18,746 nucleotides of DNA from a phage (GCA_019844455.1 GCA_019844455.1_3938.2); one strand, 5' to 3'. Shown: positions 2-4,562, counted from the stretch's first letter. Notes: generated from the letters alone by a model not told the origin. A program made the numbers and translations.

Positions 2-391
2 CGTGCAAACGAAATCCTGAAGCGTCTGTATGAAATGGGGTTTGCAAGCTCTAACGTGGTGTTTGGTGTAGGCTCTTACACTTACCAGTACATGACTCGT
101 GACACCTTTGCATTTGCTGTCAAAGCAACTCTTGCAAGCATTGGTGGCAAAGAGATTATGCTTGCAAAAGACCCTAAAACAGATAGTGGTGTTAAGAAAT
201 CTGCCTTTGGTGGTGTAGCACCTATGTGGGATGGTGAGAATTTGAAAGCTGTAGATGGCTATGGATTCCAGAGCTTTGCAGATGCACTTGAACATCCAGC
301 TTGTGCTTTACGTTTAGTCTTTAGCGACTCTGAGCAGTACGGTTACACAACTCTTGGTGATATTCGAAATAATATTGACAAGCAGCTTTAA
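2..391 (+). CDS. nadV: nicotinamide phosphoribosyltransferase (NadV/NAMPT-like), C-terminal fragment; 5' end lies outside the window
   Basis: Frame is open from the window edge to TAA at 389-391. The segment NVVFGVGSYTYQYMTRDTF...KDPKTDSGVKKSAFGG matches, from memory, the conserved NAMPT C-terminal pattern (FGxG...TRD...KDP..D...KK). Not searched. Confidence 0.7.
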   Translation, partial: RANEILKRLYEMGFASSNVVFGVGSYTYQYMTRDTFAFAVKATLASIGGKEIMLAKDPKTDSGVKKSAFGGVAPMWDGENLKAVDGYGFQSFADALEHPACALRLVFSDSEQYGYTTLGDIRNNIDKQL

Positions 392-405
392 AAGTATATG
401 ATAAG

Positions 406-444: not shown

Positions 445-780
445 ATGAAAATCAAAGAGATGAACATCAACATTGTCTTAGAAGAACGTTGGGAGAATAT
501 TAAGAAACCTGAAGATGGTAAAAAGTTCCTTAACAAAATTTTAGTAGCAGCTAAAGAAGAACTGAATGGCAAGATTGCAGCAGCAGTCACAATAAAAGTT
601 TGTGTAAAAGGTCTTCCAGACAACCACCAATTTGCGCTTGACGAGTTTAAAAAAAGCTTCTACAATCCAAACAAACAGATGCTTGAAAGTAACTTTGCAG
701 TATCTACAAGTATCGTCCATGACAGAAGCTTTATCCTTTACAAAAACATGAGGGGTGAGTCATGCAAGCATATTGGGTAG
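445..780 (+). CDS. hypothetical protein (111 aa)
   Basis: ORF with GGAG 7 nt upstream of ATG 445; same strand and spacing as the flanking genes. No recognisable motif. Confidence 0.55.
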   Translation: MKIKEMNINIVLEERWENIKKPEDGKKFLNKILVAAKEELNGKIAAAVTIKVCVKGLPDNHQFALDEFKKSFYNPNKQMLESNFAVSTSIVHDRSFILYKNMRGESCKHIG

Positions 781-938
781 AAATTTTACTGTCACTTGGT
801 AGTGTAGCAGTCCTTGTTTATCTTCTTTGTAAGTACTTTGCAGAACACAAGAAGTGTGACTACTGTAACGGAGAAGGGTATACAAGAGCAGGTTGTTGCC
901 CTATGTGTGGTGGTTCTGGTAAAATGTTTAATAAGTAA
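762..938 (+). CDS. small membrane-anchored protein with two DnaJ-type CxxCxGxG zinc-finger repeats (58 aa; absent from the ORF track)
   Basis: Hand translation: MQAYWVEILLSLGSVAVLVYLLCKYFAEHKKCDYCNGEGYTRAGCCPMCGGSGKMFNK, stop TAA 936-938. Hydrophobic helix at residues 5-23, then CDYCNGEG and CPMCGGSG. Purine-rich stretch aggggtgag at 751-759 ends 2 nt before the ATG; overlaps the end of the 445-780 ORF by 19 nt. Confidence 0.5.
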   Translation: MQAYWVEILLSLGSVAVLVYLLCKYFAEHKKCDYCNGEGYTRAGCCPMCGGSGKMFNK

Positions 939-966: not shown

Positions 967-3333
967 ATGCGCATGGTAAATGACCACGCAGAAGTGATTA
1001 AGAGTTCAACTTCTTTAGAGACGTCTCAAGCACAGATTACAATGACACCTGAGATGTTCAGCCTTTTGAGTTCTGGTGTATATACCTTTAAAGAAAGGGC
1101 AGTGATTCGTGAACTGTCATGTAACGCAGTAGATGCTCAGAAAGAAGCTGGAAAAGAGAACATTCCGTTCCATGTGCATTTACCTACTCGTTTTGAGCCT
1201 TACTTTGAAGTTCGTGATTTTGGAACTGGATTGACTCATGATAAAGTTATGAGTTTGTACCTAAACTACGGGGCTTCTACGAAGAATGACTCTAATGACT
1301 ACATTGGTGCAATGGGTATCGGCTCAAAATCCCCATTTGCAATTGCTCAGTCATTCACAGTATCTAGCTATGTTGATGGTGTTGTTAATAAGTACTCTGT
1401 TTATCTTGAGAATGGTATCCCTCAAGTAACTAAGCTGACCACTAACCCAACAAAAGAACCTAATGGTTTAGCTGTACGTGTGGCAGTTGCTGACCACCGT
1501 ATCTCAAAGTTCTTTGAAGAAGCTGGAAATGTGTACTCATACTTCACTGTAAAACCAGAAAGTAATATTGAGTACGACGATGTATTAGCAGATATGAACG
1601 TCATTGCCCGTGAAGAAGGTGTTTATGATGCCATGATTCATAAGCAAAGCTGGCGTTCTAGTGGTAACAGGACAGAGTTTAATGTGGTGATGGGTAATAT
1701 TGCCTATCCAGTGAACATGGAAGCATTACTTGGTGATGATTTCTTCAAAGTCTTGCCAGAGTTTTTCCGTAGGAGCGTAGACCTTGTAAACATCTACATG
1801 CCTATTGGTTCAGTTGCTATAGCAGCTTCTCGTGAAGCATTGCAGATGAATGATACGACAAAAAATGTTATCATCGAGGCTACCAAAAAGATAACTGAAG
1901 CAATTACAAAGGATGTTATCAAGAAAGTTAATAGCCAACCTACACTCATGGATGCTGCACAGGCTTATGCAGAGCTACGTTTGAACTCACGAGAGATGTT
2001 TAATGCTGTGTGTCCAAAGCTAGAGTGGGGAGGCATTAAGCTTGATTCTCTGGAAGAAGAATTGTTAAACATTCGTCGTGGAATTATCTACGCAGAAGAC
2101 GGCTCAGTCATTTATGAACGTGACGGTAAAGGCAATATTAAGGTTGATAGGAACGGGAACAATATCCCTAAAGTAGATTATCTTTATGACCCAGTTGCTT
2201 ATGTCAAGTTCAACTCTTTAGAGAGTAAGATTCGTGCAACATCGCTTTCCTACACTCAAGAGGCAAGTATGTTCAATATCTTTGGCGCAATGCGTAAAAG
2301 CCAAATTGAACAGTTTTTGTTTGTTATAAATGACCGTCGCAATAAAAACGGTACTGAGAAGACTGTAGGACGCAATCAAATCTTGCGTGGTGCATGTCGA
2401 GACTATGCCAGTGAGTCAGGCCTGTTCCACAGATACAACGGTATTGTGTTTGTATTCTCGACTGAAAAAGAGTTAGACGACCTAATCAATCTACACAAAC
2501 TTGATAAAAGCTTGTTAAAGATTGTGAAGATGTCTGATAAGGAACACCATTATCAGCGTAAAGAAGCTGTAAGAGGTGTTGTAAAACTCTGGAAAGCTGT
2601 TCCAGCAGAAGGTGTAGCTTCCTATAAAGAGGTGTCAGAAGACTTAGACACAATTGAAGAACCTCAACTTTATATCAAGGCAGTAGGTGATACTGTTGAT
2701 GGCGAATGTTTTTGCTCATCTCCAGAAGATGTAGCTAAGTCAGTTGCCAATGTCATTGGGAAGACAGTCTATGTTTTCCGAAAAGCAAATTGGAAAAAGA
2801 TACCAGAAGACTGGATTGAGGTAGATGAGAAGCTCTTGAACGACAGCTTAACTGATGTTCACTGGATTAATCATAACAGATATATGACACGTATCTATAT
2901 GAATGGCGTCCTTGACCTCACAAGCAGTTGGATTATTGCCAGAAACTTTACGTTCAATAACAGGAAGATTTCTCGTGGCTATTGCTATTCACGAGACACA
3001 AACAAAACTATCTTCTTAGAAGGCAATGAAGATGCTGTTGAGGCAATGTTTGGTAAAATCCAATACGTTGCTGCACCGTTTGCATACGCTTACACTATTA
3101 GTAGATTGCAAACTTTGAAAGAATGCCTTGACAATGATACAAAGTTGTACAAGAAAATTAAGAAAGCTGGTGACCGCATGGTCATTAAGGTGACAAACTA
3201 CCTTTCAAAAAGAAAACAAGAAAACTTCTTGCTTTCTCATTTAGATTGGAATAAAGTGTCACCTATTGAAGTGAGTAAGTTCTTAGGCTTTGATGTGAAG
3301 TGTGTTCCAGAAGGGACTACAATTTACGATTAA
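967..3333 (+). CDS. rIIA: rIIA-like protein (membrane-integrity / lysis-inhibition protector; N-terminal GHKL-like ATPase region)
   Basis: 788-aa ORF with RBS aagagga upstream. The N-terminal blocks AVIRELSCNAVDA and DYIGAMGIGSKSPFAIAQSFTVSSY parallel T4 rIIA (recalled as AVVRELITNMIDAH and DFIGGFGLGSKSPF...SITSY). Followed directly by an rIIB homolog. Confidence 0.9.
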   Translation: MRMVNDHAEVIKSSTSLETSQAQITMTPEMFSLLSSGVYTFKERAVIRELSCNAVDAQKEAGKENIPFHVHLPTRFEPYFEVRDFGTGLTHDKVMSLYLNYGASTKNDSNDYIGAMGIGSKSPFAIAQSFTVSSYVDGVVNKYSVYLENGIPQVTKLTTNPTKEPNGLAVRVAVADHRISKFFEEAGNVYSYFTVKPESNIEYDDVLADMNVIAREEGVYDAMIHKQSWRSSGNRTEFNVVMGNIAYPVNMEALLGDDFFKVLPEFFRRSVDLVNIYMPIGSVAIAASREALQMNDTTKNVIIEATKKITEAITKDVIKKVNSQPTLMDAAQAYAELRLNSREMFNAVCPKLEWGGIKLDSLEEELLNIRRGIIYAEDGSVIYERDGKGNIKVDRNGNNIPKVDYLYDPVAYVKFNSLESKIRATSLSYTQEASMFNIFGAMRKSQIEQFLFVINDRRNKNGTEKTVGRNQILRGACRDYASESGLFHRYNGIVFVFSTEKELDDLINLHKLDKSLLKIVKMSDKEHHYQRKEAVRGVVKLWKAVPAEGVASYKEVSEDLDTIEEPQLYIKAVGDTVDGECFCSSPEDVAKSVANVIGKTVYVFRKANWKKIPEDWIEVDEKLLNDSLTDVHWINHNRYMTRIYMNGVLDLTSSWIIARNFTFNNRKISRGYCYSRDTNKTIFLEGNEDAVEAMFGKIQYVAAPFAYAYTISRLQTLKECLDNDTKLYKKIKKAGDRMVIKVTNYLSKRKQENFLLSHLDWNKVSPIEVSKFLGFDVKCVPEGTTIYD

Positions 3334-3412: not shown

Positions 3413-4522
3413 ATGACTACTAAAACTAAAGCACAGATTGACGCAGAAATTTACAAACTGGTTAAAGAAGGTAAGCTGACTAAAACAGCTATTGCACAGA
3501 AATTTAATACTTCAACCCGTTCAGTCGGTCGTGCTGTAGAGCGTCACGAAGCAACCTTAAAAGGGAATAAGAAGGCAACTTCTACACCAGCTACGAAGAC
3601 TTTGAAACAAGTTGCTAAGACCTTTAAGAAGAAAGCTGACAAACCAGTTGAAAAGGTCGTTAAAGATGTTGTACAGAAAGCTCCAGTAAATAAACTGCAC
3701 GAAGCTATGCAGAAAGATGACAAGATTGAGTACATGATTACTGGTGATTCTGTAATTATGACTTATGGTTCAGAATCTGAAATTGTTGAGTCTACTCATC
3801 CGAACTATCAAGAGATTGTAGTTCATGTTGTGAAAGGTGAGTTCAAGAAAGCATTTGAACTGATGAACATTCGTAAGTCTATCGAAAACTTCACTCAGGG
3901 TGCTATCACAATCAAAGGCGACAAGCTATTCTACGGTGCTGTTGAGATGCGTTCTACTCTGGTTGACCGTATTCTTCACATGATGAAAACTGGTGATAAA
4001 GGTTTTGAACGACTTGTAATGTTCTTCGAAAAACTGATGGAAAACCCATCTAAAGATTCTGTAGAACAACTTTGGGGATTTGTATCTCACCTTGATGTTG
4101 AAATTGATGAAGAAGGTTACATCATTGGTTGGAAGAAAGTCTCTACTCGTGAAGGCAAGCTGGTTGACTCTCACACCTACAAAGTGCCTAATGATTTGGG
4201 TAACATTGTAGAAATGCCACGTTGGATGGTTGATAATAACCGTAACGTAACTTGCTCTCAAGGTCTTCATGTTGGTGCTTGGGATTATGTTCGTTGCTTC
4301 TCAGGTGATACAATCCTGAAGGTTCGCGTACATCCACGAGATGTTGTATCTGTTCCAACTGATTACAACGATATGAAGATGCGTTCCTCTCGTTATGAAG
4401 TTGCAGCAATCGTTGATAATCAACGTAAAGTGCTGGAAGCATGGGACGGTAAGACTGAAGCTTTGCATGTCATCGTTGGCACTGCTGGTGAACTCATCTC
4501 TCAACGTAAACGTGAAATCTAA
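3413..4522 (+). CDS. rIIB: rIIB-like protein
   Basis: 369-aa ORF, RBS gagag 7 nt upstream. The C-terminal two-thirds parallels T4 rIIB as recalled: ...MRSTLVDRIL..., ...ENPSKDSVEQLWGFV..., ...CSQGLHVGAW..., KVRVHPRDVVSVPTDYNDMKMRSSRYEV (T4: KVKVHPRDVVSIPIDYNDAKMR). Confidence 0.9.
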   Translation: MTTKTKAQIDAEIYKLVKEGKLTKTAIAQKFNTSTRSVGRAVERHEATLKGNKKATSTPATKTLKQVAKTFKKKADKPVEKVVKDVVQKAPVNKLHEAMQKDDKIEYMITGDSVIMTYGSESEIVESTHPNYQEIVVHVVKGEFKKAFELMNIRKSIENFTQGAITIKGDKLFYGAVEMRSTLVDRILHMMKTGDKGFERLVMFFEKLMENPSKDSVEQLWGFVSHLDVEIDEEGYIIGWKKVSTREGKLVDSHTYKVPNDLGNIVEMPRWMVDNNRNVTCSQGLHVGAWDYVRCFSGDTILKVRVHPRDVVSVPTDYNDMKMRSSRYEVAAIVDNQRKVLEAWDGKTEALHVIVGTAGELISQRKREI

Positions 4523-4539
4523 TAAGTAATTTCTTAAAA

Positions 4540-4562
4540 GGCTGCTTCGGCGGCCTTTTTTA
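4540..4562 (+). terminator. rho-independent terminator after rIIB
   Basis: Stem ggctgc/gcggcc (one G-U wobble) with ttcg tetraloop, followed by tttttta. Confidence 0.7.

Follow-up and report, generated by a model that had tools for sequence, protein, structure and literature searches.

A small gene with paired cysteine motifs upstream of rIIA

The 18,746 nt phage sequence analysed here (GCA_019844455.1; 'the window' denotes this whole stretch) comes from a Felix O1-like myovirus of the genus Felixounavirus (Ounavirinae); over bases 400-1400 it shares 99% identity with E. coli O157 typing phage 1. On its forward strand, just upstream of rIIA, positions 762-938 hold an open reading frame (ORF) encoding a putative zinc-finger protein of 58 amino acids (aa), which starts with ATG and ends with a TAA included in these coordinates; its translation is MQAYWVEILLSLGSVAVLVYLLCKYFAEHKKCDYCNGEGYTRAGCCPMCGGSGKMFNK. 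It is preceded by a purine-rich Shine-Dalgarno-like sequence, GAGGGGTGAG (750-759, same strand), the GAGGGG core of which lies 6 nt 5' of the ATG, and relatives carry GAGAGGTGAG or AGGAG at this site. Codons 5-24 (774-833) specify a predicted transmembrane helix, WVEILLSLGSVAVLVYLLCK, delimited by hydropathy, conservation and an AlphaFold2 helix spanning residues 3-28. Further along are two exact fits to the CxxCxGxG pattern: CDYCNGEG at residues 32-39 (Cys32 and Cys35; 855-878), and CPMCGGSG at residues 46-53 (Cys46 and Cys49; 897-920), the latter with an additional cysteine, Cys45, immediately before it. From the first cysteine of one motif to that of the other is a distance of 14 residues, as in the Bacillus protein anti-TRAP. 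No other match to the pattern occurs in a six-frame translation of the whole 18.7 kb window, and 500 shuffled windows contained a mean of 0.034 motifs each and never a pair in one open frame. The combination of a membrane-type helix, two repeats and a ribosome binding site-like stretch, for which this ORF had been singled out by a model reading the sequence (hereafter the original prediction), is therefore borne out by translation, hydropathy, the six-frame scan and the shuffles.

The ORF is a real coding gene under purifying selection. Frameshifts or stop codons in relatives, which the original prediction had named as evidence that would count against it, are absent from the Ounavirinae loci: the frame is intact in 27 out of 27, the start being the same in each and preceded by a Shine-Dalgarno-like sequence. 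Variable sites are distributed over codon positions one, two and three in the ratio 7:5:26 among 16 distinct Felixounavirus sequences, and 14:3:31 in the Mooglevirus/Suspvirus group. Pairwise ratios of non-synonymous to synonymous divergence (dN/dS) relative to the window are 0.05-0.11, with dS reaching 0.46; in the same genome pairs the ratios are 0.03-0.05 for rIIA, 0.06-0.15 for rIIB and 0.08-0.19 for the 111 aa ORF immediately upstream (ORF111). The exceptions are three singleton database entries (P0003, from phage phiWec177, P0005 and P0006), each frameshifted at a different place, all of which switch to the +1 frame (window frame 814-954) and end in VVALCVVVLVKCLISNLTVN. These represent either independent losses of the zinc knuckle, such as might occasionally occur in culture, or sequencing errors.

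The encoded protein matches PHROG 3931, a family with the function label 'unknown', at E = 4e-33 (residues 1-58 against positions 1-59 of a 59-position profile). It is identical to its orthologue in phage HY02 (100%) and shares 94.8% identity with that of Felix O1 (gp131, Felix01p243, NP_945023), the last gene of that genome (PMC3185647); the SUSP1 orthologue is AVU07_agp080, and the annotation table of that phage likewise ties phrog_3931 to Felix01p243. Hence the description of the ORF as unannotated holds only for the gene track behind the original prediction, below the threshold of which it fell, as the coding sequence is already called in HY02, Felix O1 and most other relatives. In phage XTG1 it is a 'putative membrane protein; similar to Felix01p243', in Mushroom and EcoM2 a 'heat shock protein' and in Erwinia phage Tian a 'chaperone protein', and 'hypothetical' is also among the labels in use. 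Gene, family and, in some cases, even the DnaJ-like motif had consequently been noticed by annotators of Felix O1-like phages, under functional labels that are putative.

The family is narrow, since an exhaustive phmmer search of 1.84 billion representative proteins returned just five clusters at E < 1e-10. A word-indexed search with the single sequence found close relatives only, and it was the exhaustive phmmer and profile searches that reached the Krischvirus, Erwinia and Pectobacterium forms. PADLOC gave no matches for either the zinc-finger ORF or its upstream neighbour. A 70.7 kb record labelled 'Campylobacter phage A132' (MG065664.1) also carries the gene, at 94.8% protein identity; this record may be mislabelled or contaminated.

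Predicted topology and fold

Hydropathy places the transmembrane segment at approximately residues 5-24, with the best 17-residue Kyte-Doolittle window at residues 6-22 (mean 2.30). It is flanked by Tyr4-Trp5 and Tyr25-Phe26 and includes a conserved Glu7. The AlphaFold2 model, built from a seven-sequence alignment with a mean predicted local distance difference test (pLDDT) score of 74, consists of one helix, at residues 3-28, followed by short hairpins. Net positive charge just C-terminal of the helix is found in the window protein (KYFAEHKK), in that of Erwinia phage M7 and in that of Phi1, so that a cytoplasmic location is the most likely for the C-terminal domain under the positive-inside rule. 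The tail itself is basic where it reads KMFNK or KKFKK, and acidic in Erwinia phage M7.

Across all the aligned sub-families Cys32, Cys35, Cys46, Cys49, Gly37, Gly51 and Gly53 are invariant, and Gly39 nearly so, whereas most of the remaining positions of the knuckle vary. The last glycine of motif 1 is not strictly required, because the SUSP1 orthologue (locus coordinates 2501-2680) has aspartate there, its motif 1 reading CDECEGSD. Searching with the single sequence gave E = 0.002 for the DnaJ cysteine-rich domain (1EXK) and E = 0.31 for anti-TRAP (3LCZ), whose alignment covers residues 31-55 and is ungapped; with a profile of ten family members the values became 1.1e-6 and 0.034 respectively. 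When the AlphaFold2 model was compared with the PDB using Foldseek, the top three matches were all anti-TRAP structures (root mean square deviation 1.5-1.8 Å over 27-28 residues, probability 0.89-0.97), followed by DnaJ zinc fingers and BSD2. The soluble part looks like one zinc knuckle of the DnaJ/anti-TRAP type, as which the C-terminal 28 residues are modelled, in keeping with the proposal that two repeats would be enough for a single zinc centre.

Distribution and synteny

The gene lies directly 5' of rIIA in every Ounavirinae lineage examined, namely Felixounavirus, Mooglevirus Sf16, Suspvirus phiSUSP1, Pectobacterium phage Wc4-1, Kolesnikvirus M7 and a metagenomic lineage, upholding the expectation that an ORF just upstream of rIIA would be kept in relatives. 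The order nadV - ORF111 - zinc-finger gene - rIIA - rIIB is conserved, except that Wc4-1 does not have ORF111. In M7 the gene (gp087) has the same layout, although it is too diverged to be detected by tblastn. Adjacency to rIIA is kept despite turnover of the genes further upstream, with an extra 345 nt ORF in typing phage 1, an extra 216 nt ORF in SUSP1 and gp085 in M7.

Outside the Ounavirinae, a homologue is found in Krischvirus (hhalign probability 98.6%, E = 8.8e-16 over 47 columns, including the helix), but there it always lies between nrdH and 55.2, far from rIIA and rIIB. It overlaps the end of nrdH, which encodes a glutaredoxin-like redoxin, by 11 nt (Phi1, locus positions 2236-2653); such an arrangement suggests that translation of the cysteine-rich membrane protein is coupled to that of a redoxin. 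The gene therefore adjoins the rII genes throughout the Ounavirinae, but not wherever it is found. Nor is it found upstream of rIIA in the sampled T4, Krischvirus, Vequintavirinae, N4-like, Vibrio and Klebsiella T4-like phages. The small ORF upstream of T4 rIIA, rIIA.1, has neither cysteines nor a hydrophobic helix, and is unrelated; elsewhere this position is occupied by a cell-wall hydrolase gene (Vequintavirinae) or by small soluble ORFs (N4-like and Vibrio phages).

A small membrane protein encoded upstream of rIIA was also considered as a general theme, in a sample comprising Krischvirus, a Klebsiella T4-like phage, two Vequintavirinae, two N4-like phages and a Vibrio jumbo phage. This idea was rejected, as there was one transmembrane case: RCIP0020_71 of Klebsiella phage RCIP0020 (locus positions 1754-1990), a 78 aa single-pass membrane protein with no cysteine motifs, encoded 10 nt upstream of rIIA.

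Orthologues in published functional studies

The orthologue in SUSP1 is dispensable in a knock-down screen, having a CRISPRi-ART gene fitness of 1.05 from seven guides and a classification of 'Not Fit'; in the same screen rIIA was 'Semi-Fit', on the basis of one guide, and rIIB 'Not Fit' (PMC11879866, supplements 8 and 16). Knock-down of either rIIA or rIIB sensitises this phage to the RexAB system of lambda, in a test that covered these two genes (PMC11879866). In the Felixounavirus Bas63, the published account of a genome-wide knockout screen gives g84 and g85 (rIIA/B) as the counters to QatABCD, these being co-essential with 10^4-10^5-fold plating defects, and in its passages on this screen names no third such gene (PMC11482910). 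Reverse transcription PCR (RT-PCR) in Felix O1 showed that transcripts of the neighbouring genes 128-130 and of rIIA peak at 25 min, and those of rIIB at 10 min (PMC3185647). Nothing relevant on Felixounavirus transcriptomics emerged from a search of the literature.

Neighbouring genes and transcription signals

Upstream, ORF111 (445-780, + strand; PHROG 4262) overlaps the start of the zinc-finger ORF by its last 19 nt, suggesting translational coupling of the two. It is confined to the Ounavirinae, being present in Felixounavirus, Mooglevirus, Suspvirus and Kolesnikvirus and absent from Pectobacterium phage Wc4-1. An AlphaFold2 model of its product (pLDDT 68) has the layout beta-alpha-beta-alpha-alpha-beta-beta, but the fold provided no functional clue, the nearest PDB neighbours being C-terminal domains of IF3 at E values of at least 0.04, which are weak, not significant and uninformative. 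Some close relatives (typing phage 1, at locus positions 1546-1890, DE17 and typing phage 15) have the extra 345 nt ORF between nadV and ORF111, which the window does not; its similarity to ORF111 is marginal (BLASTP E = 0.11). Downstream, rIIA (967-3333, + strand; 788 aa, PHROG 612, E = 4.7e-189) starts after a gap of 28 nt and is followed by rIIB (3413-4522, + strand; 369 aa); no transmembrane segments are predicted in the products of either gene in the window.

All of the transcription signals described here are pattern matches. A near-consensus promoter-like site, TTGACA-16-TATGAT, is found at 375-402 (+ strand), and a terminator-like hairpin following nadV (403-426, + strand) begins exactly where it ends. 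A transcript initiated from this site would hold only the 3' half of the hairpin, an arrangement that recurs at the same distance in several genera. As the next terminator-like hairpin, the likely end of the unit, comes past rIIB (4536-4559, + strand), the four genes from ORF111 to rIIB may form a single transcription unit starting near 375-402. A further promoter-like site within ORF111 (638-666), though conserved, was not counted as evidence for a promoter, since the invariant residues ALDEF and FYNPN are encoded at the same place.

The spacer between the zinc-finger gene and rIIA is 28 nt in Felixounavirus (939-966), as against 58-74 nt in Mooglevirus, Suspvirus and Kolesnikvirus (e.g. positions 2681-2742 of locus L003 and 2427-2500 of locus L033), where a TTGACA promoter-like site directly follows the stop codon of the zinc-finger gene. 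The window has only a degenerate counterpart, TTAACA-17-TATTAT (940-968, + strand), the second hexamer of which overlaps the start codon of rIIA and which is probably not functional; it looks as though a promoter or operator before rIIA has been lost from Felixounavirus by deletion. Cotranscription with rIIA is likely in Felixounavirus to judge from these signals, but is not a conserved necessity, because the other genera have the longer, TTGACA-bearing spacer. In Sf16 the spacer before rIIA also holds a palindrome, GTGGCA...TGCCAC.

Scans of the window with Rfam and ARAGORN gave no matches. Between the last forward-strand and the first reverse-strand genes lies a 1.7 kb region (15489-17155) with no ORF of at least 60 aa, no tRNA and no Rfam match, which is full of repeats phased at 11 nt (CTTGTTAGnnn and CTGTTAAGA) in both orientations, and which is annotated as 'repeat_region' in some relatives. 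It is at most 92% identical to relatives, compared with the 99% seen between bases 400-1400 and typing phage 1. This region may function in regulation or as an iteron-type origin.

Candidate roles of the protein

The reading we favour, tentatively, is that the zinc-finger protein is a membrane-tethered module for binding other proteins, with an accessory role. It would be a bitopic inner membrane protein, crossing the membrane once through the helix at around residues 5-24, with its short N-terminus probably in the periplasm and a single Cys4 zinc knuckle (Cys32/35 and Cys46/49) held in the cytoplasm about eight residues past the membrane. The knuckle would be the unit that makes up half of a DnaJ cysteine-rich domain and that is present in anti-TRAP, and would offer a small, rigid protein-binding surface at the inner membrane face. 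Binding is proposed as the mode of action because anti-TRAP acts by binding a partner and the plant protein FIP also binds one, and by analogy it would serve to recruit, hold or block that partner, making the protein an adaptor, a holdase or an inhibitor. The outcome would be a conditional benefit rather than an essential function; its accessory status is indicated by the dispensable SUSP1 orthologue and the three independently frameshifted variants. A host or defence protein is a possible partner, which we hold somewhat more likely than rIIA or rIIB, though still short of an even chance, because the gene is also carried by unrelated T4-like phages, in which it stands alone as a cassette at another place. 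Its absence from most of the sampled rII-bearing phages and the two-gene result in Bas63 point to the same autonomy.

Several observations weigh against this interpretation. The orientation is not uniform by so crude a rule as flanking charge, the region after the helix having no net charge in Mooglevirus and a negative one in Pectobacterium phage Wc4-1. The confidence of the AlphaFold2 model is moderate, and the Foldseek E values of 0.16-0.43 are not significant for a domain so short. Gene 131 was outside the 102 ORFs of Felix O1 tested by RT-PCR (PMC3185647). Finally, the strict adjacency to rIIA in all Ounavirinae could mean that the partner is rIIA/rIIB after all.

The last of these points leads to the principal alternative, which develops the suggestion in the original prediction of an accessory subunit or chaperone for rIIA. 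The protein would tether rIIA/rIIB to the inner membrane, or help to assemble them there, and the rII counter-defence of the Ounavirinae against RexAB and QatABCD would need it. We consider this unlikely, although not negligibly so. The gene has stayed directly 5' of rIIA in six lineages despite gain and loss of genes just upstream, and in Felixounavirus it is probably cotranscribed with rIIA, given the 28 nt gap and lack of a usable promoter; the rIIA and rIIB proteins of the window themselves lack transmembrane segments; and the dN/dS of the gene is similar to that of the rII genes, all of them being non-essential in a laboratory host. However, synteny is by itself weak evidence here because Ounavirinae genomes are largely collinear. 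The Krischvirus homologue adjoins nrdH instead, the other rII-bearing phages sampled have different genes upstream of rIIA, promoter-like sites separate the two genes in Mooglevirus, Suspvirus and Kolesnikvirus, and the account of the Bas63 screen reports g84 and g85 alone as counters to QatABCD (PMC11482910). Hence the adjacency part of the suggestion stands throughout the Ounavirinae lineages examined, whilst the inference of a shared function fares less well: that the rIIA-rIIB complex has in this protein its missing membrane anchor or assembly factor is doubtful, a reading argued from synteny and partly contradicted by these observations. In one variant, the protein may be a phage analogue of plant FIP that docks onto the FtsH of the host.

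DnaJ-type zinc fingers and plant membrane DnaJ-like zinc-finger proteins, such as LQY1 and CYO1, have disulfide isomerase activity in vitro. The protein could accordingly be imagined as a membrane-bound thiol-disulfide oxidoreductase or redox sensor, rather than a static zinc site, as the overlap with nrdH in Krischvirus, the Cys45-Cys46 doublet and a helix-terminal cysteine might be taken to indicate. This we regard as improbable, since the extra cysteines do not occur throughout the family (Ile-Cys replaces the doublet in Wc4-1, and Cys23 is missing outside three genera), the four motif cysteines and their glycines match structural zinc sites, no redoxin is encoded nearby in the Ounavirinae and the predicted cytoplasmic location favours zinc-bound thiolates.

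A Cys4 zinc knuckle is not known to be typical of holins. That the protein is a holin, or another membrane protein that times lysis, is the least credible of these proposals: gp131 was listed among five possible holins in the Felix O1 genome paper for being small, with a transmembrane domain and a charged C-terminus (PMC3185647), and it does have one such helix, a basic tail and a place beside rII genes traditionally annotated as lysis inhibitors, but its neighbours are nadV and rIIA rather than an endolysin gene, knock-down of the SUSP1 orthologue causes no fitness defect, the neighbouring Felix O1 genes peak at 10-25 min and not late (all three being indirect indications as to lysis timing), the tail is acidic in Erwinia phage M7, and the knuckle makes up almost the entire soluble part, fitting a folded binding domain better than a pore-former.

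The favoured interpretation therefore remains that of a tethered, accessory protein-binding module. Nothing in the evidence would be surprising to a specialist. Nevertheless, an ORF that had fallen below an annotation threshold turns out to be a real gene, and it may have a part in rII counter-defence, against QatABCD in Felixounavirus and RexAB in Suspvirus; its characterisation could reveal a new small phage effector acting at the inner membrane.

Comparison with known systems

Two of the counterparts are other phage proteins. Felix O1 gp131, like the rest of PHROG 3931, is the same gene with no substantive difference, found in the same place between nadV/ORF111 and rIIA. The ORF046-type proteins of Krischvirus (RB49/Phi1-like) have 52-55 aa, the same layout of helix plus knuckle and a Gly-Cys-Cys doublet, but differ in that their gene lies in T4-like genomes between nrdH and 55.2.

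Among characterised proteins, the modelled knuckle has its closest structural counterparts in half of the DnaJ cysteine-rich domain and in anti-TRAP (RtpA/YczA of Bacillus; PDB 2BX9, 3LCZ and 3LD0), the latter of which has about 53 residues, one zinc centre and two CxxCxGxG-like motifs; phage residues 31-55 align without gaps to anti-TRAP residues 11-35, with the same 14-residue distance between cysteine pairs. Anti-TRAP is a small zinc-binding protein that acts purely through binding TRAP (PMC11255114, PMC2896485). It is, however, soluble, and C-terminal to its knuckle it has a helix that assembles into a trimeric bundle (PMC11255114), whereas the phage protein has an N-terminal membrane helix and just five residues after the knuckle, with no C-terminal helix in the AlphaFold2 model. 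Membership of the RtpA family was rejected, the score against NCBIfam NF058604 being 11 bits relative to a cut-off of 65 and the trimerisation helix being absent.

The DnaJ (Hsp40) cysteine-rich domain (PF00684, 1EXK) contains the same CxxCxGxG motif, and each half of it aligns to the family profile. The phage protein has two repeats instead of four, and so would form one zinc centre instead of two, and it is without the J domain, G/F region and C-terminal substrate-binding domains of DnaJ. Membership of the DnaJ/Hsp40 family was likewise rejected, with 17.1 bits against PF00684 relative to a gathering score of 32.7 and values far below the cut-off for the NCBIfam DnaJ model. No J domain, with its HPD motif, was matched in the 58 aa protein using Pfam or NCBIfam, and to judge from its sequence the protein cannot act as an Hsp70 co-chaperone in the manner of DnaJ.

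In architecture, a parallel is provided by the plant protein FIP (FtsH5-Interacting Protein, At5g02160), which combines a membrane anchor with exactly two CxxCxGxG repeats, forming a C4 zinc finger, and no J domain, and which binds FtsH5, a membrane AAA+ protease (PMC5915565). The comparison with FIP and related thylakoid DnaJ-like zinc-finger proteins was made on their described architecture, after removal of the transit peptide. FIP is eukaryotic and located in plastids; a shared partner, in the form of bacterial FtsH, would be a matter of analogy. The phage protein appears to exemplify the membrane-tethered single zinc knuckle in a tiny form that is easy to mutate, this architecture being otherwise described in the thylakoids of plants.

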